A program made the translations under genes and the position numbers. From positions 1,302,001 through 1,366,000 of the forward strand of contig OZ287080.1 in the NCBI GenBank assembly GCA_965645245.1: a stretch of DNA of 64,000 nt, given 5' to 3'. The notes under the pieces were generated by a model. The model worked only from the letters and a program-made list of their open reading frames with translations. It had not been told where the DNA came from and made no database searches. Position 1 is the stretch's first letter. Each line of letters opens with the position of its first letter. The stretch is from Massalongia carnosa (taxonomy: Eukaryota). This document shows, one piece after another, positions 10,226-43,740 of the stretch.

Positions 10226-11541
10226 CACGCCCTTGAAAAAAAAACTGGCAACGTGTAAGCGAGCTTACCCCACTAAATTTTACCCCTTTTTATCAACATT
10301 TCACCTTTACATTGCGATAACCAGTCAATTGAAAGCTATTTACATCAAATTAATGACCAGTCATGGACCCCTCAGCTGAGATGACGTCCTTTAGTCGTTG
10401 AGGCATTGATCGTAATCTCTCATTAATAAACTCCTGACTGACTGTCGCCCAGCCCTCACAAATCAATGCTTTTAAGCTCGCTTCGTCCCAATGAGGATAC
10501 TTTTTAATATGCTGCTTTGTGGGCTGCCAGCTGTTTTCAATAGGAGCCAAATCAGGTGAAGAAGAGCAGTTGAAATAATGCTCTAAACGATGATCCTCCT
10601 TCCATTTCTTGACTGCGTTTCTCGTCCTGCCTGTGCCATGCCCGGAATCACCATCTTCTTCGAGCACAAAATCATCCCCTCGCTCTAGCCACGGCTTGAC
10701 AACGGGCTCAAGTATTGAGTTAATGTATACTTGATGCGTCATCTTGCCATTGCTGTTGCCCGGCACTTCGTAGAATATAATATCCGACTTGAAGTTGTAG
10801 CCTACAGCCGCCCAACAATGCAGTCTCTTTCGATCGTTCTCCGCTGGCGCATCACGATGTTGTATACAATCCCATCTATAGCGTGTGCCTGGCTGACGTA
10901 TGATGCGTAATTTGCCCTCGGGCCCGTAGGAGAAATGAACTTCGTCACTAAATCGTACTCGATACCAATCTTCTGGTTTAGGATATTTGGCCAGCATTAT
11001 ATGAGCGTATTCCACCCGTTTTTGCATAGGAGGGTCGGCCAGCCATCCTTTGACGCAGGCTAGACATTTCTCGTAATTCAATGCAGCACGTAGCACGTTA
11101 TGCATTGTACGACCCACAACATCTGCTCCAACTTCCATCGCAACTTTTTCCAATGTCAAGCGTTTTCCTTCGAGTTGTAGCTCATCTTCCTGAAGCAGCC
11201 GATCAGCCTCTCGTACTTGCTCGCCTGTGATTTTTGATCGTCTTCCTCGCGTTTCTATAAGCTCTGTATGATGACGAGTACGTGTCGAAGCTCCTTTGCG
11301 AATAATTCTGTAGCCAGCTCGTTCCGAAACGCCATACTTCTTGAAAAGATTTCGTGGATCATGTACGATGCCTTCATCAAGAAGATATTCATGAATTCCT
11401 TGAAGTTTAGCTCGAATGGGAGTATCGTAGTGAGTTGCACGTTGCTTACGAGGCATGTTGGTGTGGATGGTTGATGAGAAGGGGGGAATTTTAATGGGGT
11501 AAAGTCGCCTACACGTTGCCAGTTCTTTTTTCAGGGGCGTG
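10226..11541 (-). mobile_element. IS630/Tc1/mariner DNA transposon with ~50-bp imperfect TIRs
   Basis: TIR CACGCCCYTGAAAAAARAACTGGCAACGTGTARGCGA..TTACCCC at both ends, enclosing an intact transposase. Confidence 0.9.
10350..11456 (-). CDS. Tc1-like DDE transposase (368 aa), intact, DD38E spacing
   Basis: Motifs FSDEVHF, EEDGDSGH and SPDLAPIEN; start MPRKQR at 11456 lies inside the TIRs. Confidence 0.9.
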   Translation of the reverse strand: MPRKQRATHYDTPIRAKLQGIHEYLLDEGIVHDPRNLFKKYGVSERAGYRIIRKGASTRTRHHTELIETRGRRSKITGEQVREADRLLQEDELQLEGKRLTLEKVAMEVGADVVGRTMHNVLRAALNYEKCLACVKGWLADPPMQKRVEYAHIMLAKYPKPEDWYRVRFSDEVHFSYGPEGKLRIIRQPGTRYRWDCIQHRDAPAENDRKRLHCWAAVGYNFKSDIIFYEVPGNSNGKMTHQVYINSILEPVVKPWLERGDDFVLEEDGDSGHGTGRTRNAVKKWKEDHRLEHYFNCSSSPDLAPIENSWQPTKQHIKKYPHWDEASLKALICEGWATVSQEFINERLRSMPQRLKDVISAEGSMTGH

Positions 11542-11760
11542 ATAGTATGTTGATGATGCAAAGACTTTGCTAAAGCGTGCCGACCCGCGAGCTATGCGTT
11601 AACGATGTTCGTCAGAAAACAATATAGGTATATCGAAACCTTTACAGAACAAACCTCCTTTGGCTGCGAGATAGAGTAGTAAGGAAATTGTCGTTTTCTC
11701 ATGAGTAGCATGTCATGCAAGACTCCTGAAATCCAACGCCTTTCATGTCTTATCGTTTCA

Positions 11761-13263
11761 TTATCGTAAAAGCACCACAGCTGGAAACACCATACTTTCA
11801 ATGACCCCTGCTGTAAGGGACTCCATCCGCACTAAAGACGGGAAAAGCGCCACATGGACGCGTTCGTCCCTTTTCACGTTGCCGTACTCGGTGATCATTC
11901 CGTCGGGATCGAAAGGTTCATCCGTGCACGGCAGCCGAAACGCATATTCATCACCTTGCAGCGAGACATGGGCTTGCAGGTTGAGGGCCGTCGTGAATAC
12001 TTTACAGAGATCCTCATACCACTTTAGGAGGCTCATCGGGCTTGTGAGCCCAATGTTGGACAATATAAAAGGTTTTAGAGCTTCGACAAGTCGACGCGAA
12101 AGTTCCAGGGCGAACAGCTTGAAATCGATATCTTGTTCGGTATCAAGCTTATTGCATTCACGAAGCGTTTTTTCGTGAACTTTGGGGTGCACTATTTAGA
12201 GCAAGCAGAGGCTTCTTTATCGGCCTTCTTAGGATACAAGGTTACTGCGTGTACTTACACTTAGCAAAGATCTCTCCATAGCTTGCTTGGGAGTTTGAAT
12301 TTTGTAAGCCCTCCAAGGGCAGCCGCTCATTTCTTCGTTCAAAGACCCATTCAGCGACCGCAGCAGCCGTCAACGCACGGAAGAGACCTATTAAAGAAAG
12401 TGGCGACTGGGGTTGAATAAGTGCAAACTTCTTTCGCAGCTCATCTCTTGTGTTAACGTTGTATACACGCTTACAAACGTTAAAGAATGATAAAGAGCGA
12501 AGTGATACATAGATCTGAGGGTCAATCAGGTCGTCTGTTTTGGTTAATTTAAGCAAGTCGCAAACTGCCGATTGAATTTGACGAATCATGTGCCCCTTCA
12601 AGTGATCCAGATTATTTTGGCTTGGTGATAATCCATCAGGATCAGCCGGGAGAAACTCGTGGATAGTAGTATTGCGCTGAAAGTGATTGGAATCCAAGCT
12701 AAAACTGCCAGCAGTTGAACTTTCCCGCACACCATTACCTTGGAGGTTGATTCTAGGGGAAGGATGACTGCTCAACGAACTCGAAGTCGGATGTTGCCGA
12801 TACTCTCTTGACATCGAGCAAGGGGCACGATCATCCTCCAATCTTCATTCACCGTTAGTGGGTCAAGCCGACCTTATACACGTTCGCGTGGGTAATTTAC
12901 CTATCATCAGCTATCGAGGAGTCATGTCCTGAAGTCTCATCTAGCGATGACTCTATCGGGACTGGAGCTTCGTGCGAACGCTTATAAGCAGCGGAATTCC
13001 TAAGGAATCGTTCTAGTAAGCTTATTCTCCTTTGAAAGTTAAAGATATCTTGATAAATCCCTAACTCATTCGCATCGGGAGAAAATTCCCTCAAGAGCTC
13101 ACGAATAGCCTCGTGATAAGGAGATTTTTTTCTCGATCATATATAGTCCTTGTTCCCATTGGGTGTTATCAAGTTGATCTAGAACGGCCTTTATCATAAA
13201 AGGGCTCCACACGAATACCTACAACTTGACGCTGGGAGCGAGCGTGTTACTCATTGAAACCAT
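11761..13263 (-). CDS. Multi-exon hypothetical protein with a GrpE-like C-terminal beta domain; 5' end uncertain or disrupted
   Basis: Introns 12900..12843 and 12258..12192 join three ORF pieces in frame. The C-terminus reads DEPFDPDGM...VHVALFPSLVR...MVFPAVVLL. The GrpE resemblance is inference. Confidence 0.6.
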
Positions 13264-13777
13264 GTCAAGACGCGTGTTATTCTCACTAGAGCATAGATGA
13301 ATAACAACTTGAATAGCAAAATTTAGTCTGATGTGTAGAATCCAAAGCTTCGTGTCGCGGCGTAGAAGTAACACGGTGAGTATGCCATGTACTTGGCCTG
13401 TTAATGAACCACCGTCGGCGTGAAAATTCAAAAAAAAAACAACTGCATCAAAAGATTTTGCTGATTGTTGCGTTCTAGAAAACCAAGATTTCAAATCACG
13501 CGTACATGATCCGCTAAGGGCAATCAGCGATCGACGTGAAAGACCCCTGGGCAACAATGCCTTAAGGCACAGTCGGAGAGTCTGTGTCTGCGTACATACT
13601 CACTGTGATCCTTGCTCTGTGTCATAGTGGCGTTTGCAATCTAGTCCTTGACCAATCACAAACCCTGTACTCATCTTCAACTCGCACAAGAGTAAATACT
13701 TCTTGGCTTCGCGTATATTGAATCAAGCCTGTTAAGTTGATTTCAATAAATGCGTTTCTTTTCAAACGCTCAGATTT

Positions 13778-16610
13778 ATGATCTATTGTCCTCCTCTGCT
13801 AGAATACAAGCACCATAACTTTGAACGCCGAGACCAAGATGAAACTGAAGATATGGATAGATTTTGAACGAGTTACCCAGCTATTGCACTTGCTCGTTAC
13901 CAGTAAAGGACCCGTGAGCCGGCAAACGAGGCTGCGGTAGAATAATTCTTGATAACGAGGCCTCAGGCTATATGCTTTGGGTCAACGGACAAGTAGGTCC
14001 GAGCCTAGAACGCATGGCACCAGGGTGATCAAGGCTATGTTTGAGGAAACGAGGTTAATGATAAGATTGAGAATGGAGAAGTCTCCGAGAACGACCGAAT
14101 CATCATACTAAAATTCGGTCACGACAATACTCCGGAAACACAAGAGATTGGAGTCAGGCAGAAGGAACATCTTCGAAGAATACCAGCAAATCCAACAATT
14201 AAGGACGTGATTCGAGAATATTTGCAGCCACTTTATTGCTCTGCCAGAGAGAAAACCATGAATATCAGGGGCAAAGGTACTTTAGATCATGACCATGATC
14301 ACGTTGAGTGCGTCCTCTGTGTTCTAGCTCTTTGGACTCCAGAGGTCAATCAAACCATGGTATTTGTTTCCGAAGAAGTAGGCTTACCCCATTGCATTCT
14401 CGTTTCTGAACCAGAGGCTGCAGCAGCCCTGATGAAGCATGAACACTAAGAACAAAGGCCAGCGTCAGCGACATACATGGATGAATAGATAGAGTCATTG
14501 ATAATATACGTGAGTTAGTAGGACCGTGATTTATAGTTAGTAGAGACACGATAGAAGCTAATCTTAGAAGTTTCATGAACACAATCTTATAGCAGATATT
14601 GGACGAGGAACAGGTGTAAGTTACGTTGTGAATGCAAACGTAGGGTACATTACGAAAGCTAATGAAGAGATTTAGGATTTCATCACGTATATGGTTGAAA
14701 CGCGTTCTCCAACACTTCAAATGCGAGAAGGTATTCGTGGGACATATTTTGTGTTGTGAGCTAGATGTCATAGCAGCACACTAAGTATCGGGGGAGGACT
14801 TTGCGGATCTGACTTGCTCAATACGTGTTTTCAGGAATTCTTCAAATCGTGCATTGGAACGGACACAAAGCGTTTCTTGGAATCTGGAATGCCCCGCAAG
14901 GAGCAGAAAGCTGAGGAGTTCATTGATAATGAGGTAGAGAACTTCGAGCACAAGAAAAATAGCTTCAACAGCTTTCCAAGAAAAGCCTGAGAGAAAGAAA
15001 TCTGTATTTATGTCAAGAGGATACTTGTATATCCTATGAACGGTATAAACCCAACCTGATAGTGATCCTGTGTAATATAATTACCTTAAGCTTACTCTAC
15101 CAATGACTGACTGACAGATAACAGGAACTCCGTTCGGAAATTTTTCTCGAAATACTCTACCCTATAGTCAATATGATTAAGCAATAAGTGGAGGCCTTCA
15201 ACAAGAAAACCGAATACTCAGGAAAGAGAACAAAAGTATTCATTCCGAGTAAGGTCTCATATTCGATCCGAGTTAACTGGCAAAGAGCATTGTATATATA
15301 GGCGGGCTTGTGGCAGTCCACATGTCCTATACGTCTTGAGAGAGATATTTTCCGACGGAGCACGTCCGGCCATGAGTTATGTGATTGAGATCATTACTCC
15401 CGATGTAAACTCGTTAGTATTGTATACTGCTACTATAAACAAACTGATACCTTGAAATAGCCACAGTGATAGCAAGGGAGCATTCTTAAGTGTCATTAAC
15501 AAAGGTGCCGTTGCTGTGAGATATCTTTGTCAAATATTTGGACTCACCTAGGACGAGACATATGATCCTTCCATTCATGGCCTAGGAAAAGAACCCAAAA
15601 AGGGACCCATTCGACGGTACTTTTATCATTGAAAGTTGTATACATTGGCTATGATGATGATGTATTCATACTCCGATATGTCACCGGCCGTAGGCCAGCC
15701 CATGCGGGCAGTATACATTGGCTATATAAAATAGTAAGTGTACTAAAGCCTTGCAACTGTGAAAACTTGGCTTGGCCTAGTTCTGACCTAGACTACTCAG
15801 AGGACGAGGCTGTTGAGCAAGGCGAAGCTCGACAACTGCACTGCTGAAGATGCTGCGAGCTCAAAGGTCTTATAATCTTGATGGAGGTTCTCTATATTTC
15901 CAGTCAAGAGAAACGGAGTCATTTTCAGGTCGATAGTCCAGAGAATGGTATGAGTAGAATTGTTACTTCTGGCTTTACTAACGAAGTAATGAGCGAGGCA
16001 TCAAGCCAATAGGATGTATCGAGACCGACAGCCTTTCTAATACCGACCAGAAGCTATTTCTTCTCAAATAAAGTCCAGTCAATAGAAGATACTATTACAG
16101 GCTGGATTATGAAGTGTCCATATCGTTCACCCTCTATTGACCTATGAAATCATCATTGCACAGCATGGTGAATTTTTGAATCTGATCTCACGGGGCCCGG
16201 ATCCAATTCGCAAGCTGGCAGTACTTAATTGCGCCGCTGCTTTCGAAACCAGAGGCCAGGAAACATACCAAACGCCTGCGCCGGAAATATTACCATCAAA
16301 ATCTCCGACAACAGCTGAACCTCGTAGGCGCATAGGTGGCACACCTACGTTAGACACAAACTTACCCACGTCAGCTGGTTGTCTCGATGAGACCCGAACT
16401 CAGGACACGTCGGAGGCCAATCATACTCAATTGCAGAGCTCCAAGAGTCGTCGCCAACAGCTTGCCAAACGGGGTGTCAGGCCCTTACGCCTAAAAGTCA
16501 CCAGTCTTGGGCGAATGTACCAAAGGTGCCGGTGGCACGATGATGAGACTAAGCGGAAGTCCATCTACGGGGAGCTAACATTGTCCCACATGCCGAGCAA
16601 TACGTCGTAA
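13778..16610 (+). pseudogene. Decayed non-canonical Hsp70 (HSPA12-like / actin-like ATPase) gene
   Basis: Motifs in the correct order across frameshifts and stops: IDF(G)TSYPAIALA (~13857), CVLCVLALW and LVSEPEAAA (~14310-14425), DIGRGT (~14595), GGLCGSDLLN (~14793), KGAV (~15502), YDPSIH (~15561), AAAF (~16231). Boundaries approximate. Confidence 0.75.
15653..15710 (-). mobile_element. 58-bp 5'-truncated LINE insertion with 15-bp TSD
   Basis: Near-identical to the 3' end of the LINE at 37685-37750, including the (CAT)n tail; flanked by GTATACATTGGCTAT at 15638-15652 and 15711-15725. Confidence 0.92.
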
Positions 16611-17820: not shown

Positions 17821-19791
17821 ATGATGATCGGAATTTTTACTCTCACACTCCTAGTGGCATGGACGGCACGGTCTTCTGACGCTGCCGCAATCAGCTGTAA
17901 ATGCGTGAGTATGCTGGCTCGAATGTTCAGAAGTCCCTCTATGTGCCTCCAGAAGCATGCTGACAAGAACACCTAGGGTCCTGAAGACTCATGTTGGCCA
18001 TCGACCGCTGAATGGAACGCCTTGAACACATCCGTGTCAGGGAAACTAATAGCCGACGTCCAACCTGCAGCTCCATGTTACCCGGGCCCGCTGCAAAATG
18101 CAAAAGCATGCGCACTCCTCAACGTGCAACTAACGAACGAAGACTTTATCGCAAACACAGCGATAGGCCTTTCTTATCCCACCGGTTCATGCCCACCAGT
18201 TAATTTGGCTGCAGGCCAAAAACCTGGTACATGTTCAATTGGAGATCAGCCAAGATACACCGTGAACGCTACGGAGCCGGAGGATGTGGCCAAAGGGATT
18301 TTGTTCGCGGAAAAACACAATATTCGATTAGTGGTCAGGAATACTGGACATGATATATTGGGAAGGTGTGGAGTTCGTACTTACAGATTATGTATGTTTG
18401 TGCTTACATCCATCCAGATCCACCGGATACGGGAGTTTGCAAGTGTGGATCAAATACATCAGGAAAGGCGTGATTTTCCACGACAAATACCAACCCTCCA
18501 GCAGGTGCACTCAATCGACCTGGACCGGCAGCGCCTTCACAATCGGCGGCGGCTATGTCTGGAGTGATGTTTACCAAGAGGCTGCGAAGAGAAATGTCGT
18601 CGTAGTTGGCGGGGGAACTCCAGTAGGTCTTGCCAAACACGAATCTTGCCCGGATGTAGTGAATCATATCTAATTCGCCCTTCCCTACTATAGTCCGTAG
18701 GCTGCCTTGGAGGCTGGATGCAAGGTGGGGGGCACGGCCCGGCGGTCCACGACCATGGTCTTGGCGCCGATCAAGTCCTCGAAGCTTGCGTTGTGCTGGC
18801 GGATGGCCAAACTGTCACAGCCTCTCCATGCGAGAATCCGGACCTCTTCTTCGCCATCCGTGGCGGCGGTCCCAGTACCTACGGCGTCGTTGTCTCCACC
18901 GTCATCAAAGCTTATCCCACCACCAAAGTTGCAGCACAACAACTGTCCTTTGCGCCTCTTTCTCCCACGACCGACCTACCCGCATTCTTCGACGCCCTCG
19001 CCCTTATCTACGCTTCTTATCCGGACCTATCTGACGCCGGCTGGTCGGGATACGGTTCGTGGGCGACGTCCCCTGTGCCCATAGTGCCGAATCACTCCAT
19101 CGGCTTCACGCATACAATCGCCATCTTCAGCAAATCCGCCGCCGAGGCCCAAAACTCCTTCGCCCCTGTGGCCGCCAAGCTCGCGGCCTTTAAGAAAGTT
19201 CTCTCCATCAATACGACCTACTCCGCCTTCCCCACCTACGTCGCTTACTATAACGCTCTCTCGGGCATTGTCAGCCCAGTTGGCCAAGCTTCCGCCCTGG
19301 GCTCCCGCCTCCTCGACCGCAAAGCTCTAACGGCCGACCCGGCCGCACTGAAAAAGGCCCTTGTCGCTACTGCCGGCACGCCGGAGCAGTTCACGAGCAG
19401 CTACATTGTCTTTGTCGGCGGCGGTCAGGTCTTCGCCGACGCTAAAGACCCTCATTCGGGCGTTAACCCGGCCTGGCGCAAAGCATACGTGCACAACATC
19501 GTCGCGCGAGGCTGGGCGCCCGGCAGCGATGCCGCCACCATTGCCGCCGTGCATAAAGATATCACTTATACGAAAGTACAGGCGCTGAAGACGCTCGCGC
19601 CGGACACGGGCGCATACATGAACGAGGCGGACGTAGAGGATCCGGACTTCTTGTCAGATTTCTACGGCCAGCATCTTTCAGAGCTGCAGGGCATCAAGCG
19701 GCAGTACGATCCGAATCGCGTCTTCTATTGCCCAACGTGCGTAGGTAGCGACGATTGGAAGGTGGGGTCGAGTGGGAAGTTGTGCAGGTAA
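17821..19791 (+). CDS. Secreted FAD-linked oxidoreductase (berberine-bridge-enzyme-like, FAD_binding_4 + BBE), 4 exons
   Basis: Signal-peptide-like N-terminus; introns 17905-17976, 18366-18417 and 18623-18693; motifs RNTGHD, GGWMQGGGHG, AIRGGG, GAYMNEAD, KRQYDPNRVFYCPTCVGS. Confidence 0.92.
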
Positions 19792-19945: not shown

Positions 19946-21284
19946 CAGTACTAGGTCAAAAGTTTCCGATAGCCCCACCATCAACTTTTACCCCCCCACT
20001 GCTTTGAATTATCAACTATCAAGTTGTTATTTTGATGTCTTGAAACTTCGTACGACGATTACATACATTATAGCAAGCACATTGGGCTGAGAAATATATT
20101 TCTAATATTTCGTATACCATCCTTTTGACTGGATGCAAGCTTCAATCCTCCTTTCCATGCTGTCTACTAAACTCTTCAGCATTTCCTCATCTATCAAGGC
20201 CCATGCTTCTTCCAAAGCTTTCCAAAGTAGCTCGCGGACCCTATCATCACTACCAGTCACTGAGTCGATGTCCGGATTGACCTGGTAGACGAGCTTCTTG
20301 AGCGCGTACCAAACGTGCTCGATGGGATTCAAATTAGGGGAATAAGGGGGCCAATCGATGACTGTTATACCGTTTTCATCGAACCATTTCTTCACCTTTT
20401 TGGCAGTGTGAATGGGGACCTTATCCTGCATGAAAATGAGACCTGGTTCCCAAATTCCAAGCAGATTATCGTTCAATAATTCCAAATATGAATTCGCGGA
20501 GTACCCCATCTTCTTTGCCTCGAAATCGCAGGCCAATTTGTAAAGATCCGACCTCCCCCCCACCCCCAAAAAGCCCCCCATACCATGACCTTGACCTCTT
20601 GTCCTTTGCCGTACGGTTGTATCTTAGGTTTTTTCCATTTTTCGTCCGGAAACCTGAACACCCATTGACGCTGTTTTCCCGACCCCTTTTCCACCGAGCA
20701 CTCGTCTGACCATATTATTTTTGACCACTGCTCAAAAGTCCACTCACGCCGAAGCAAGCACTAGTCTAGTCTCTTCTTTGCCACCTCAGGCGTCAATAAA
20801 GGTCGCTTTTTTGCCAGCCAGTTTGTTAGACCATAGTCTTTGAGCGTCCGATAGAGAGTGGATCGACTACATTGCACCTCAACCTCCGTACGCAGCTGCG
20901 CGTAGGTGATGCGTGGATTGATTCGTGCAAGTTTGATGATACGTCTTCGATCGCGGTTCGAAAATATTCCAGGCCGACCCGATCGCGATTTGGACTTTTC
21001 GTTGTTGCGTTCTGGGTGCTTTTGAAGAGTGTAAATGACGGTAGTTCGAGGCACATTTAATGTCTTTGCAATTTCGGCCGGTGCATGCCTCAATGCCTGG
21101 GTTCCAATAATCATACCTCTTTGACATTGATTCAATTCGGTATTACGAGGCTTATTACCAGAAATTGAAGTCAACGGAGTGCGTGGCATGGTGAAATGAT
21201 GAGGTCAAAGTTGATGGGTTGGTAGGTTAAAATGCGAAATCACGAAGATCGCGGGTAGAGTCGGAAACTTTTGACACGGGACTG
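19946..21284 (-). mobile_element. Tc1-like (DD34E) transposon, defective, TA TSD
   Basis: TA|CAGT.....GTCAAAAGTTTCCGA TIRs at both ends. The transposase at 21189..20102 (HTH, WSDEC, FMQD, PPYSPNLNPIEH) has a stop at 20761 and a frameshift in a poly-G run near 20575. Confidence 0.92.
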
Positions 21285-37931: not shown

Positions 37932-40900
37932 TTACAATAATGTTGATGCTAGTGAGAATTGATTCAATAAGCCTGTTTTCATTAGCCAAGCAGTTAGTAT
38001 CTTCAGAGTTTTTGATGATTTGGTCAGCTGCTGATAGTCGCTCGTGCCGGCGGCGCGAAACATCTGTTCTCTATTGTCAATAAGTCTGCAGAACATGATT
38101 ACATGTTCTGGAGTTTGTCTGTGCCAGCCACATGAGCAGGCCGGTGAGGTGACGGAGGGCACCCGTCGCTTGTAGAGGAAGTCAGCTAACCCGATCTTGC
38201 CAGTGCGGATTTGAGTTGTTAGAGCGCTTTCTGCCTTTTTTAGCTGCGTGTGTATTTTCAGCCGTTTTTTGCTCAGTGGGACTGATTGTGCTATGGAGGG
38301 TTCGATGACGCGATTTTGATATGCGCACCACGAGTCGTTCCAGACCTTCATTTGTCGTGCTTTGATTTTTTGCATCTGCTTGTGTCGGGCCGTTGCCGCA
38401 ACGGTAGCTTCGCAGTGCCACGCCGGGTAGACTTCGAACCATGGTGGGTGTGCCTTTGGTGGTTGAACTATTTTTGAGTCGATCAGTAGGCTTTTGGCCC
38501 AGATGTGTTTCAGCTCTCCCGGGGTGGGCTTTTGAAGTCGTTTGCGACCTGCCTTGCCTCGAAGTTTGTCAGCTATTTTGTTGCATGCGGAGGAGATGAT
38601 CTTCAATTGGCCTCCGGCACGGAGCCGGTGCCTTGCCTGTGCTTGTAGCATGTCGAGATGCGTGTCTATGGGCGCTATGAATGTCTCTGCTTCTAGTACT
38701 GAGATGGGAGTGGCTTTAAAGGCACCGGCTATGGTGCGAAGGCAATTGTTTTGCATGACGGAGAGCTTGCTCGTTGACGTTTTTGACTTTTTGACTTCTT
38801 TGGGCATGTGCCATACGGTTGACCCATATGTCATGGCCGGACGCACCACGGCACTGTAAACCTGCCTTGCCTTGGCGAAGGTGGCACCCCAGGTTGATGT
38901 GGAAATTTTTGTCAATGCCATGGATTGTTTGACCATTTTCTCTTGCGTTTTGCGAACGTGCGGTCCCCATTTCAATTTGGTGTCGATTTGTAGGCCCAAT
39001 ACTCTGATGTCCGTTTTAGGTTCAATTTCGGTGCTAGCAATATTGATGGATGCAGTCATGTTAAATCTTTTGGGATTTCTGGACAAGTGTATGAGTTCGT
39101 ACTTCGTCGGAGCGAATACGGACCCGTGCCGGGAAGCCCACGTCTCACATTGTCTGTGTATTGCCTCTAGAGTTTTGCAGTTTTCCTCGGTGCTTTTTCC
39201 ATATGCCAAAATGTTTGCGTCGTCTACGAATCCTATGGCACTTGTGTTTTTGCCTGGTCGATCACATATTTCCAATAGATCTGCATTGTAAAATAGGTAA
39301 AGAATGGATGACAGGGGAGAGCCCTGCGGGATACCCGTTCTTACCGCAAACCGCCCAGTGACTTTTCGATTTATTGCTAAAGTGGTGCTTCGATCGCTCA
39401 GAAAGCTGTTTAACCAGTCGGTGATCCATTTTGGAATTTTTCTTTTCCGTAGGTTGTGCGTTAGTCGTTGATGTGATACCGTATCGAACGCGCCGGCGAC
39501 GTCCATGCTTAGCAGTGTGGCTACTTTGTCTTTTCCCTGTCCCCAAATCGTGTGAACCTGTTCAGTTAGCAGCTCCAGTGCTGACTCTGTGGATCTGCCC
39601 TTCCTTGCTCCCATCTGTGTATCGGGTAGGAGCCGGTGTTTTTCCGCCAGATAGGTTATTTCGATCCAATGATGGATTCCATAACTTTACTGAGCGTGTT
39701 GAGCAGTGCAATTGGTCGGTAGGCTTTCGGCGTGGTATAGTCTCCTTTGCCTATTTTTTTCAGCGCTATTGTGTTTGCCATTTTGAAGGCCCGCGGGTGG
39801 TACGAGTGTGTGACGCACGCCTGAAACAGAGGTGTTAGTAGTTCGACAAGTATTTCGCTGCATGCTTTGAGTATTCTGTTAGATATGCCGTCTGGGCCCG
39901 GTGCCTTATCGGACTTGAGCCGACTCAGGGCCGTCGATACTTCTGACTTGGTGATGATTATTGGGCAGTGCGGCGATGTAGGATAGAAGGATCCTTCTAT
40001 GTCGCTTAGGTCGGCCGGTGGTGGTGCGGGAAAGAAGACACCTTTCAGCATTTCGGCTTTTTGGTTAAACGTGTCTGCTACTTGGTCATTGAATTTTAGC
40101 ATCGGCATTTTGGATACTTCTCTAGATTGATGACTTTTGTCTTTGGCCCATTTCGCTAGCCGCCATAGTCCCTGAGGCGTTTCGGTGGCCTTATTGATTT
40201 CTTGACGAAAGTTTGTTCTCTTTGCCTTTTGAATGATTTTCTGTTTTTTATCATTGGATTTCATATAGTTAGACCAGTCCGTTAGGTCTAACGTGCTGGA
40301 CCATATGCGGCGTAGTTTCCGTGTGGCTTTGGTGGCAATGCTGCATTCTTCTGTCCAGAATGGCTTAGCATATTCGCTAGATTTTGCCCATGGAACTGCT
40401 TCGTTGATGACATTTTGTAGAAATTTTTGAATCAATTCCGTGTACGCATCAATCTCGGCAGTGGTACGGGGAGACTCCGGTATAGGGGCGTGTCGTTCGG
40501 CCTCCCTTAATTTTTCCAGGTTTAGAAGTTTCCATGCTCTGCGTTTGATTTTCGGTTGCGGCTCGCTTCCGAGTAGGATGCGGGTTGATATCGGCACGTG
40601 ATCGGACGATTGATTCAATTCTGGTCTGGACATGCAGTGTTCGAGTCTTTCGACTAGGTATTCTGACATGAAAACCAAATCTATCGTGCTAGACGTGTTT
40701 CTTGCTTCCCATGTTACGGTGCCTTTCGGCATTGTCAACGAAAGATTATGATCATCGATTATTTCTAGTAATTGATCAGCAGCAGCGTGTTATGTGGGTC
40801 TTGAGGGACCATTCCAAAAGGGATGATGCAGGTTGAAATCTCCAAGTAGTATGTGATGCGCATCGGCGGTAAGCATGCTCCGAGCCGCCGGTAAGGTCGT

Positions 40901-41284
40901 GGGACTGTCAGTGGATGAATAGGAAGCGGGAGAGGGGTTATACACATTATGGACGTGAATTGTTTCCATAACGCCTTCGGTGTAGGTCTTTATTTTCAAA
41001 GTGCACATGTCGGCCGAGGTGAATTCCACCTCCCAGCTGTCAGTGTCTATTAGGTCGTTGACATAAAAGCACACTCTGGTGTCACCTCCTGGGCGGTATA
41101 GGAGGTGAAAGCCGCTTTGATGAGAACTAAGCGATGTGGGGGCGGATGGATTGCGCCACGGTTCCTGTATTGCAATAATATCATAGTCCTGGGTGTTTGT
41201 GTCTGCTAAGAGGGGTATCATAGTACTCACTCTGTCATTTCTGACATTATACTGCAATATAGAGAGGGATTTTGTGTCCCTCAT
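37932..41284 (-). pseudogene. LINE ORF2: APE endonuclease + reverse transcriptase + C-terminal Cys/His finger; one nonsense and one frameshift
   Basis: ILQYN, IQEPW, GDFNLHH, SDH, KAPGPDGI, YRPIALL, PQGSPLS, FVDD and CSCG..QTPEHVIMFC. TAA at 40790 and a -1 shift near 39658. Confidence 0.93.
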
Positions 41285-42768
41285 AGGATTTCCATCGTTT
41301 CGGCCGCTGTGTTCGATGTGACCTGAGTTCCTGCCGTTAATGCTACGGAATCTGCACGAGGCCTACCCAGCACTGGTTTTGCTAAGGCCTTTACCATATT
41401 TTCAGGATTCATGATGCCTATATTAGCCCAGGTAGGTGCGTCGTCTCCCCGATGAGGGCCCGGGGGTGTGCCGGATGAGGGCGTAGCGTTGTGTATTTTT
41501 CTTTTCTTGCCGTTTACTATCTTCCACGTTGACGGAATTTCGTCCGTTTGTGTGACTGTGGGTGTCGACTCTCGTTGAAGTTGAAATTGAAATGAGGGCG
41601 GCTGTGATCCGATTGCATAGAGGGGGGCGCGGTTTTGCATTGCTATTTCAGTTTTTCGCTTTTCAGCTAATCTGACTTTGCATGCTGTGGACCATGCTTC
41701 GTGTCCCTTCTCTCCGCATACGGCGCAACGGCGGTATTGCCCCGTTGTCTCCAGATTGCATTCTTTGCTTTGATGTCCACCGGCGCAGTGACCACAGGCG
41801 GCGGGATTGCGGCATGCTCTACCGATGTGTCCGTATTTTTGGCAGTTGAAGCATTGAGTCATGGTGCAACCACGTGTGAAGCGCTCGCAGTCCTTTATTT
41901 CGTAGCTTTCCATTAGGCCCTCGGTGATGAGCCGGTTAGCCATCTCGGCGGTGGCGACCTCTATATGAAGCGTCGAGTACGCTTTTTTCTCTCTAATGGC
42001 CTTGATTGACCAGGCTACTTTGACGATCTTCAGGTTAGGGTGCAGGCGTGCGTTAGCGGCCTGAAGGTAGGTGATGGCTGTTGATTGATTGGCCACTTTG
42101 ATGTTTTCCACCCTGATTCCATTCGCTCTTACGGTGAAGGTGCGGGTGTGCACCGCAGCTGAGGCGGCCACCATGCGGGTCCAATCGGTCTTCTCCTGCA
42201 GGGTCTTCTTTGCTTCCAATGACTCTGCGTGAATCCTGATGTCGCCGTTTAACAAACGCGACACTCCCCTTATTCCTTCAGCTCCATTTTGTAGTGTTTC
42301 TACTAACTCCTTGGTTGGCATTAGCTTCATTTTTTCCTTGTCCGCATCCTCCGTGATGTGAACGGTGATTTCCCGGGCACGTCGCGCTTCTCTTGGTGTG
42401 GGTGCTTTGTCTTTGCGGGCCTGTTGAGGCTTGACGTTTTGGTTCTTTGGGGGTGCGGGCTCATCTCGGCCTTGCCTTGTGGCAGCAGCGGCATAGCTGC
42501 GAGGAGTGGTCTCATTGCGCTCTATGCGTGTCAATGATTGTTGGATTGCCTGTAATGTGTCACCTATGTTGTTAGGAGTTTCTGCAACTTTGTCATCGAC
42601 TAGATTTTGCGCTTGCAAAATTTCCGCTGAGTTTCTCAGCAACTGCAACGCCTCCGGGTCACCAACGGTGCCCACTCGATCAAGATACTCCTTGATCTTT
42701 ACGTGTAAACATTCCCTCCTTTCGCTGTGCGCTCTCGAGAGCGCGTTTGTTTGTTCGAGTGTAGTCAT
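41281..42768 (-). CDS. LINE ORF1 (gag-like, CCHC zinc knuckles), 495 aa, intact
   Basis: QCFNCQKYGHIGRAC, CGHCAGGHQSKEC, CAVCGEKGHEAWSTAC and SYAAA motif. Confidence 0.93.
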   Translation of the reverse strand: MTTLEQTNALSRAHSERRECLHVKIKEYLDRVGTVGDPEALQLLRNSAEILQAQNLVDDKVAETPNNIGDTLQAIQQSLTRIERNETTPRSYAAAATRQGRDEPAPPKNQNVKPQQARKDKAPTPREARRAREITVHITEDADKEKMKLMPTKELVETLQNGAEGIRGVSRLLNGDIRIHAESLEAKKTLQEKTDWTRMVAASAAVHTRTFTVRANGIRVENIKVANQSTAITYLQAANARLHPNLKIVKVAWSIKAIREKKAYSTLHIEVATAEMANRLITEGLMESYEIKDCERFTRGCTMTQCFNCQKYGHIGRACRNPAACGHCAGGHQSKECNLETTGQYRRCAVCGEKGHEAWSTACKVRLAEKRKTEIAMQNRAPLYAIGSQPPSFQFQLQRESTPTVTQTDEIPSTWKIVNGKKRKIHNATPSSGTPPGPHRGDDAPTWANIGIMNPENMVKALAKPVLGRPRADSVALTAGTQVTSNTAAETMEIL

Positions 42769-43112
42769 TTTCGCGACAAGTTTATGATCGTAATTGAAAC
42801 GATGAGACTAAGTCTTTCCTCTATACGCCCAGCACCATATATGATGTGCAGTTAACCCTGCTGGGATAGTTCTTGGTTAATGATTTAGTTGTAGTCGTAG
42901 CGTCATGAATAAGAATCTTATTAAAATCAATAATTTTAATGCAACGCGAGTGCAAAATGGGAGATGCTATATAAGCTATGTAATAAGTAGAAAACCCAAA
43001 GGTGAAAAACTACTCCTGCGTATCCGCTTCATCGGGGGTTCGCCGCTCCCGCGGATTGATTCTTGTATCTCGAAAATCTGCGATACTTGTTTCTCAAACT
43101 GAAGAGAGACTG

Positions 43113-43740
43113 CCCGGCTGCTGTTCAAGCAGTTGCGTGGCAATGGAATACTGTGTTAAAATACCTGTGCGCATGAGCCACACGGTTACTACTTTGAGAG
43201 CTTTGGGTTCGGTGATTAGCTTGCGGTAGTCTGACGAGCCTGCCGTTCGTAGCATGTGCGTTCTGTGTTCGTGCAGTGTGCAGAGCATGATTACATGTTT
43301 GGCTGTTTGTAAGAGGCTTCCGCAGGGACATGCCGCCGAGTTCACACCTGGGACCTTGCGCCGATATAGAAAGTTGGCCAGTCCGATTTTTTCCGTTCTT
43401 ATCTGTGTTGCTAGTGAGCTTTGCGCTTTGTCTAGTAACTTGTGTGCGTTAAGCCTTTTCCTGTGTATAGGCGCCTGTTGTGCGATCGTGGGATATAACG
43501 TGTGTTTTGCTTGATATGTTTTCCACTTGTTGATCCACTGATTCTCAAAGTGCTTCTTTATTATCCCATCTCGTTGGTTCTGCGTCGTTACTTGCGCTGT
43601 GCGTTGTCTCTTCTGTGCCTCGTCGATCGTTGTCCAAGGAGGGAGAGGGTTGATCCAGTTTAACTGTTTTCGGTGCGTCTTTCGTCATCTTTGTTACCCA
43701 TTCTCGTTTACGAGTTCCCGGTGTTTTCTCTGCGACTCGC
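43113..43740 (-). mobile_element. Fragment of a second, diverged Tad1-like LINE (ORF2 C-terminus)
   Basis: SSLATQIRTEKIGLANFLYRRKVPGVNSAACPCG..QTAKHVIMLC, paralogous to the end of the adjacent ORF2. Confidence 0.88.

Follow-up and report, generated by a model that had tools for sequence, protein, structure and literature searches.

A decaying head-to-head pair of an atypical Hsp70-like gene and a partner gene in Massalongia carnosa is one copy of a recurrent fungal two-gene module

This study concerns a 64,000-nucleotide stretch of the Massalongia carnosa genome (C14:1302001-1366000; hereafter the window, with positions counted from its first letter), in which an atypical Hsp70-like gene on the plus strand and a partner gene on the minus strand stand head to head at 11761-16610. 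We read this arrangement as one copy, now in decay, of a two-gene module that recurs in this fungal genome; both genes of the window copy are damaged. The partner is probably a dedicated exchange factor or adaptor of the atypical Hsp70-type ATPase. The module is apparently undescribed; no description of the pairing appeared in the literature searched, which lay mostly outside subscription papers and without supplements. In the window, the module is laid out as follows:

11761..12191, minus strand: last exon of the partner gene, encoding a putatively GrpE-like tail modelled as three helices and a small beta head (open frame, AF2, Foldseek and VIA)
12259..12842, minus strand: middle exon of the partner gene, a Ser/Pro-rich stretch followed by a conserved helical region, splicing in frame on both sides
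12901..13197, minus strand: first exon of the partner gene, with a one-base frameshift in an A-run; it keeps a shortened version of the N-terminal region, which in the relatives is weakly Myb/SANT-like
13198..13838, no strand: 641 bp of upstream DNA common to the two divergent genes, read from the sequence, a putative promoter region
13839..16610, plus strand: atypical Hsp70-like pseudogene, recognised by motif order and profile matches
15653..15710, no strand: 58-bp piece of a high-copy repeat inside the Hsp70-like gene, flanked by 15-bp direct repeats (15638-15652 and 15711-15725), located by a repeat finder

Linkage was scanned over 52 Mb of fungal sequence in 25 contigs of the same genome, from which the loci discussed here take their labels (C2, C6, C7, C10, C11, C13, C14:1165k, C16 and C20). 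A divergent partner with a related tail lies at eight of the nine atypical Hsp70 loci and, seen from the other side, eight of the nine partner genes have a divergent Hsp70-like gene; both counts include the window, and six independent pairs, again including the window, remain when near-identical copies are collapsed. Both genes were searched exon by exon, and the counts are therefore lower bounds. The two-gene module supposed in a preliminary description of this DNA is thereby supported as a recurrent pairing within this genome. When loci were collected blind from the Hsp70 side, three of four were linked (C2, C7 and C6, but not C14:1165k), and from the partner side four of five were linked (C10, C16, C13 and C11, but not C20). 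As a control, five other GTPase loci of 10 kb each were read and none contains a Hsp70-like or a partner gene. Three further genome queries gave no new locus.

At C2, the Hsp70-like gene is intact and encodes 576 residues, with no canonical lid at the end of the product; opposite it stands a GTPase gene of the AIG1 family, and beyond that a gene with a similar tail. The GTPase gene (C2:3136219-3137351; expectation value (E) 2.6e-6) encodes a hydrophobic C-terminus, and its relatives elsewhere (C5:2245588-2250997, C15:583798-587128 and C10:206414-208092) form clusters of two or three, some of them head to head, without a Hsp70-like gene. Downstream of the intact Hsp70-like gene, at a distance of 2.3 kb, there is an open frame of more than 1300 residues with near-identical ankyrin-type repeats (C2:3127001-3130954). 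The Hsp70-like gene is head to head with a partner at C10, C16, C13 and C11, and about 1.2 kb upstream of the Hsp70-like gene at C6 there is a divergent partner whose tail is broken. The C10 and C16 pairs belong to a 13-kb segmental duplication of 99.7% identity (C10:2189930-2203055 and C16:61000-74144), which also holds several transposons, and the C13 copy is 82–84% identical to this group. A third, convergent gene accompanies the pair at C10:2192024-2193046 and also at C13, C16 and C20; it has no Pfam match, and we take its N-terminus to resemble a fungal helical N-terminal domain. The unlinked C14:1165k locus lies among ordinary genes with no partner in the 20 kb read, and at C20 no Hsp70-like gene was found within 19 kb upstream, the homology stopping at a retroelement.

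The paralogues are divergent and frequently damaged. The Hsp70-like proteins are 20–38% identical in the N-terminal half of the ATPase, and the N-termini of the partners differ, being Myb-like in the window, coiled-coil-like at C2 and Ser/Thr-rich with a membrane helix at C7. The C7 partner (C7:932264-933786), with a GrpE-like tail behind this N-terminus, has a receptor-like layout. Breaks are present in at least four of the eight pairs (window, C13, C6 and C11; C7, C10 and C16 were checked at their long exons only), which agrees with the birth-and-death decay proposed beforehand. The transposon-rich setting proposed with it does not extend to the C6 and C11 pairs, which adjoin ordinary genes.

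In the window, gene models and ordered motifs on both strands uphold the head-to-head pair of the preliminary description, although the gap between the two starts, given there as about 0.5 kb, measures about 0.64 kb. The EPFDP, VALFPSL and VFPAVV motifs that it placed at the end of the minus-strand product are indeed encoded in the last exon; what it overlooked is the damage to this gene, so that both genes are broken and not just the Hsp70-like one. The partner gene starts with an ATG at 13197 and is read from exons 13197-12901, 12842-12259 and 12191-11761, both introns being of the GT..AG type. The reading frame is lost after codon 24 through one extra A in the A-run near 13125, and behind this early frameshift the spliced frame from 13124 to 11761 retains 412 open codons. 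Over residues 159-437 the model shares 36% identity with a relative, P0055 (E 2e-54); the first 30 residues resemble the start of P0055 by eye, where BLAST gave no match. The 143-residue tail is preceded by the Ser/Pro-rich stretch and a conserved region some 110 residues long.

The long open frame and intact splice sites, beside a neighbour with at least seven stops, might indicate that the partner in the window still functions, either by itself or together with a different Hsp70-like protein, since a downstream ATG would give a product of about 330 residues with the whole conserved core. We consider this improbable. Within the core of the partner gene, the allele on X5, a contig from a different study, is interrupted by a stop at 11976 and has lost 1 bp at 12168 and 27 bp at 12127, and the early frameshift is common to both strains, because no indel at the A-run near 13125 is among the differences listed for X5. 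This allele differs from the window by 59 changes in 4092 bases (about 1.5%). Among the 27 coding differences listed, 12 are silent and 15 are replacements, compared with 35% silent expected from random transitions (p 0.2), a pattern as expected for neutral drift. Repeat-induced point mutation was considered as a cause of the decay and rejected, the TpA/ApT ratio (0.75–0.88) and the (CpA+TpG)/(ApC+GpT) ratio (1.16–1.18) being near the values of the neighbouring genes.

The Hsp70-like gene has decayed further. Its first ATG ahead of the first Hsp70 motif is at 13839, and the motifs follow in the order IDFE (13857), SEPEAAA (14405), DIGRGT (14595), GGLCGS (14793), a further motif (15306) and KGAV (15501), so that the nucleotide-binding motifs span 13857-15512. 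Thus the ordered motifs described beforehand were found again (SEPEAAA, DIGRGT, GGLCGS and KGAV), except that the first reads IDFE and not DFG. The beta domain probably ends near 16240, and a low-complexity tail reaches the stop at 16608-16610, the 3' part past 15640 having been assigned by eye. At least seven in-frame stops interrupt the gene, five of them in 13967-14509 and two in motif-bearing stretches near 14988 and 15549, and a frameshift directly follows the first motif. X5 has one extra base after 13875, and therefore the frameshift of the window at this point is recent. The 58-bp insert shows a depth spike and loose ends in all four runs compared; it has a GAT-repeat end and resembles what may be the truncated end of a non-long-terminal-repeat (non-LTR) element.

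The lesions in both genes are genuine and not artefacts of assembly, because contig X1 is identical to the window over 11613-15677 (0 differences, 0 gaps) and contig X3, from another sample of the same study, agrees across its pieces; X1 possibly represents the source sample of the assembly. A further contig, X4, which skips 12690-15265, was set aside as too thin, with a depth of 2.5. One of the sequencing runs containing the stretch is labelled lichen metagenome, and no RNA dataset is among the datasets listed as containing it.

The actin-fold nucleotide-binding motifs, in order, indicate on sequence grounds that the window gene is kin to the Hsp70 superfamily. With a profile built from the other loci only, pieces of this gene were the top four of 1284 window chunks (best E 1.3e-4), and 86 residues of it align with the intact C2 paralogue at 33% identity. 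A profile of three Hsp70-like relatives matches DnaK (E 1.2e-13). Pfam PF00012 gave no match for the broken pieces of the window gene; among its relatives it matches L016 (E 1.6e-20, stopping at profile position 372 of 599) and the C14 exon (E 5.8e-7), with the C2 exon below the cut-off (E 0.012). Broken as it is, the window gene is not a canonical Hsp70/DnaK, that is an intact gene with a substrate-binding domain and a helical lid. The relative L016 (L016:3-1832), an intron-free atypical Hsp70 of 609 residues from a metagenome contig of 2 kb, shares 29% identity with the C2 protein. Word-indexed protein searches with the Hsp70 piece and with the read-through Hsp70 region found no annotated relative.

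The partner belongs to a family of its own. When 1.84 billion representative sequences were searched with the 143-residue tail, 54 matched at E <= 0.001, namely the tail itself, 52 relatives and one zinc-finger protein (P0004), which was removed as a false match; 33 of the remaining short matches were used to build an alignment (A1). Seven of the 20 relative clusters looked up carry a name, and the named ones are from lichen-forming ascomycetes (Q9220_004299, Q9226_002584, Q9171_005311, L6R36_002848, Q9213_002083, Q9209_007852 and Q9222_003588). In the full-length relatives, a short N-terminal domain is followed by a disordered stretch, then by a helical region and finally by the tail; weak Myb/SANT matches occur at the N-terminus in two of the 13 scanned (E 0.21–0.22). 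Word-indexed protein searches with the partner tail and with the longer proteins gave no match.

The likeness of the tail to GrpE, which the preliminary description had proposed, is consistent across methods and weak in each. The AlphaFold2 (AF2) model of the tail, with a predicted local distance difference test (pLDDT) score of 90.6, has three helices and five strands. In the Foldseek check suggested at the time, GrpE-family chains took ranks 1-6, 8 and 9, i.e. eight of the top nine (E 0.035–0.28), and to this extent the proposal stands; the scores are weak, and neither GrpE nor MIEAP is matched in Pfam. In a wide VIA search of 48,161 chains, GrpEL1 was tied first (Z 6.3, root-mean-square deviation (rmsd) 6.4, 89 residues) and was the only row among the top 50 to span the beta head, and in a second VIA look all seven beta-head-spanning rows of 50 were GrpE-family chains (Z 3.5–6.4, rmsd 4.0–7.3 over 75–94 residues). 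Neither the 13 partner relatives scanned nor the C2 tail matched GrpE, MIEAP or GIL1_IRKI_C in Pfam at E <= 0.5, and the tail profile, run against the sequences of solved structures, returned three chance matches and no GrpE. In the Atlas, the window tail falls among unnamed ascomycete clusters at 0.95–0.96, and the nearest named clusters are GIL1_IRKI_C (0.84) and MIEAP (0.80), which are also the nearest for the C2 tail (0.81 and 0.79); scores under 0.9 in the Atlas serve as leads only.

The tails of the different loci can be connected by profile. The window profile aligns with the other tails in hhalign at 72% (E 3.5e-5) and finds the C11 tail at E 0.005 and the C2 tail at E 0.44, and the description of the rank-3 Atlas cluster (153 aa, 941 members, 0.95) is common to the window and C2 tails, as are both named Atlas neighbours. 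With leave-one-out profiles run over 4152 open reading frames (320 kb), the C2, C7, C10 and C11 tails rank first or second, the tail that outranks them being that of C6, which was never in the training set. The C7 tail model, with a pLDDT of 50, was too poor for a structure search.

Several results weigh against reading the partners as one GrpE-like family tied to the Hsp70-like genes. The structure scores of the window tail lie below the trust levels of the tools themselves (Z under 8, rmsd 4–7 A), no Foldseek match falls under E 0.001, and Pfam assigns the tail to no family at E <= 1, including GrpE PF01025, MIEAP PF16026 and GIL1_IRKI_C PF24994. The window tail is an outlier, ranking 95th of the 4152 open reading frames with a profile of five other tails, and against the C2 tail alone its profile reaches 12%; the FDP..M loop is missing from the C7, C10 and C13 tails, and no second copy of the window's own partner subfamily was found beside a Hsp70-like gene in this genome. 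The linkage counts, all of them lower bounds, come from a single genome, three of the partners having been found beside a Hsp70 gene, and at C7 the divergent partner lies about 14 kb from the Hsp70-like gene with transposons between. The DNA separating the C7 genes is filled by DNA transposons and one LTR element, with its LTRs at 918555-918910 and 929533-929869.

Two other explanations draw on these results. The weak tie by sequence of the window tail to the other partners, together with the missing second linked copy, would fit a chance adjacency of two unrelated decaying genes in a transposon-rich stretch; we hold this to be very improbable, as the divergent orientation and short gap match those at C10, C13, C6 and C11, the Atlas neighbourhood is common with the C2 partner, the profile matches the C11 tail, and only nine such partner genes were found in 52 Mb. 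Alternatively, the two genes may form a co-regulated cassette in which the partner is no exchange factor, its tail being of the MIEAP/GIL1 kind (a scaffold, an oligomer or a membrane remodeller) and its likeness to GrpE a matter of ancestry or convergence. The weak structure scores, the named Atlas neighbours, the lack of a GrpE-type loop in several tails and the lack of a long stalk helix in the modelled tail (the longest helix has 28 residues in a model of only the last 143 residues) are in keeping with such a cassette. The MIEAP/SPATA18 (PF16026) and GIL1/IRKI (PF24994) C-terminal domains differ from these tails, however, in that no Pfam match joins them and the likeness rests on Atlas scores under 0.9, and the recurrence of a GrpE-shaped domain beside a Hsp70-type ATPase in six lineages would most simply mark a binding partner. 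We regard a partner with no exchange function as unlikely.

We propose, with somewhat better than an even chance of being right, that the partner acts in a GrpE-like manner on its own lidless Hsp70 or locks it in one nucleotide state, and that its variable N-terminus sets the place or the target. The two divergent genes would share a promoter region. The tail of the partner would grip the lobes of the ATPase as GrpE does on DnaK, resulting in release of ADP or in an ATPase fixed in one state, and the variable N-terminus (Myb-like, coiled-coil-like, or Ser/Thr-rich with a membrane helix) would determine the site and the target of ATPase action. Such a pair would be a private switch, outside general protein folding. 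In the window copy, the ATPase would have died first and the partner would now be drifting.

The DnaK-GrpE and mtHsp70-GrpEL1 systems (1DKG, 4ANI and 9BLS; PF00012 and PF01025) offer the closest comparison, with a Hsp70-type ATPase gene linked to a gene for a C-terminal domain of helices and a small beta head, as predicted for the fungal partner, and GrpE chains are the best full-domain structural matches of the window tail. Unlike GrpE, the window tail has no PF01025 match and is 9–19% identical in the structural alignments, and the fungal partner differs further in its variable N-terminus and an additional helical region. Furthermore, the intact C2 ATPase lacks the canonical lid, no gene for a J-protein was noticed next to the pairs, and the fungal module is multi-copy and often broken. 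Hsp70s of the HSPA12A/B type resemble the fungal ATPases in their divergent motifs, the absence of a helical lid and lineage-specific expansion; the fungal proteins may be of this type. The accessible part of a 2026 review (PMC13580251) describes HspA12 as lidless, of unknown function and expanded in bivalves, GrpE as gripping the ATPase domain of DnaK and speeding the release of ADP, and eukaryotes as having kept no dedicated cytosolic GrpE. In the available portion of PMC2266713, HSPA12 homologues are reported only from vertebrates among the 18 genomes examined.

A further explanation, which builds on the proposed control of a lidless Hsp70 by its partner and is compatible with it, is that the module serves as a switch in non-self recognition or defence. 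The partner would be a sensor or guard that recognises a foreign or damaged target through its variable N-terminus, and the Hsp70-like ATPase would pass the signal on to an effector. The rivals weighed here are not all mutually exclusive. Candidate effectors would be the membrane-anchored GTPase at C2 and the convergent helical gene of the C10 group. We put the switch, and these effectors with it, forward only tentatively. The many divergent paralogues (20–38% identity), the breaks in at least four of eight pairs, the recent segmental copies, the swapped N-termini and the AIG1-family GTPase within the C2 cluster are all in keeping with defence, and two-gene clusters are frequent among fungal cell-death genes according to the accessible text of PMC12881547. 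The module recalls the het-S/nwd2 and gasdermin-protease clusters in its tight two-gene linkage, paralogue turnover and frequent loss. However, the domains that define those clusters were not found, the module exons scanned having no Pfam match to HET, NACHT, NB-ARC, gasdermin or HeLo. The word hsp70 does not occur in the available text of three papers on fungal non-self recognition (PMC3689799, PMC11138114 and PMC12881547). The two alleles are about 1.5% apart, unlike the deep allelic divergence of het loci, and a fast turnover would suit dispensable stress genes too.

Outside this genome, a metagenome scan with poor patterns gave one locus from 531 candidates, on a 2-kb contig without flanks, and none of 57 pattern matches in viral contigs has a Hsp70-like gene. 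In prokaryote genomes, the neighbours at 31 distant Hsp70 loci (21–27% identity) all fell short of the tail profiles (best E 0.45), and none convincingly showed a GrpE-type motif when scanned for one; these loci are probably not of the same branch and so tell little about bacterial pairs.

The module is bordered in the window by further elements, one of which lies 220 bp downstream of the partner gene and outside the module:

10226..11541, minus strand: Tc1/mariner-type transposon with an open transposase frame (DDE_3, E 1.6e-9)

Its inverted repeats are 79 nt long and 82% complementary, and a second Tc1-like fragment is at 20102-20623. By eye, an FAD (flavin adenine dinucleotide)-linked oxidoreductase-like gene lies downstream of the Hsp70-like pseudogene at 17977-19791, and a non-LTR retroelement with gag-like, endonuclease and reverse-transcriptase frames occupies 37932-43684. 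At 738-2735 there is a low-complexity frame of 665 codons with Cys/His clusters.

More speculatively, and in our view doubtfully, the module could represent a family of cytosolic sensor-switches in fungi, in which a GrpE-derived domain with interchangeable N-termini controls a lidless Hsp70, sometimes with a membrane GTPase or a helical effector, as an undescribed form of non-self or stress signalling, which might extend to MIEAP, GIL1-type proteins and HSPA12 in animals and plants. The window copy is dead and useful as a marker only; the pairs worth studying are those at C2 and C10. What is new from this genome is that the N-terminus of the partner has been swapped while the pairing was kept, and that the pairs are often duplicated and lost. 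If a GrpE-shaped domain has indeed stayed paired with lidless Hsp70s, this would challenge the loss of a dedicated cytosolic GrpE in eukaryotes, and the pairing would open a direct test of HspA12-type function via nucleotide exchange.

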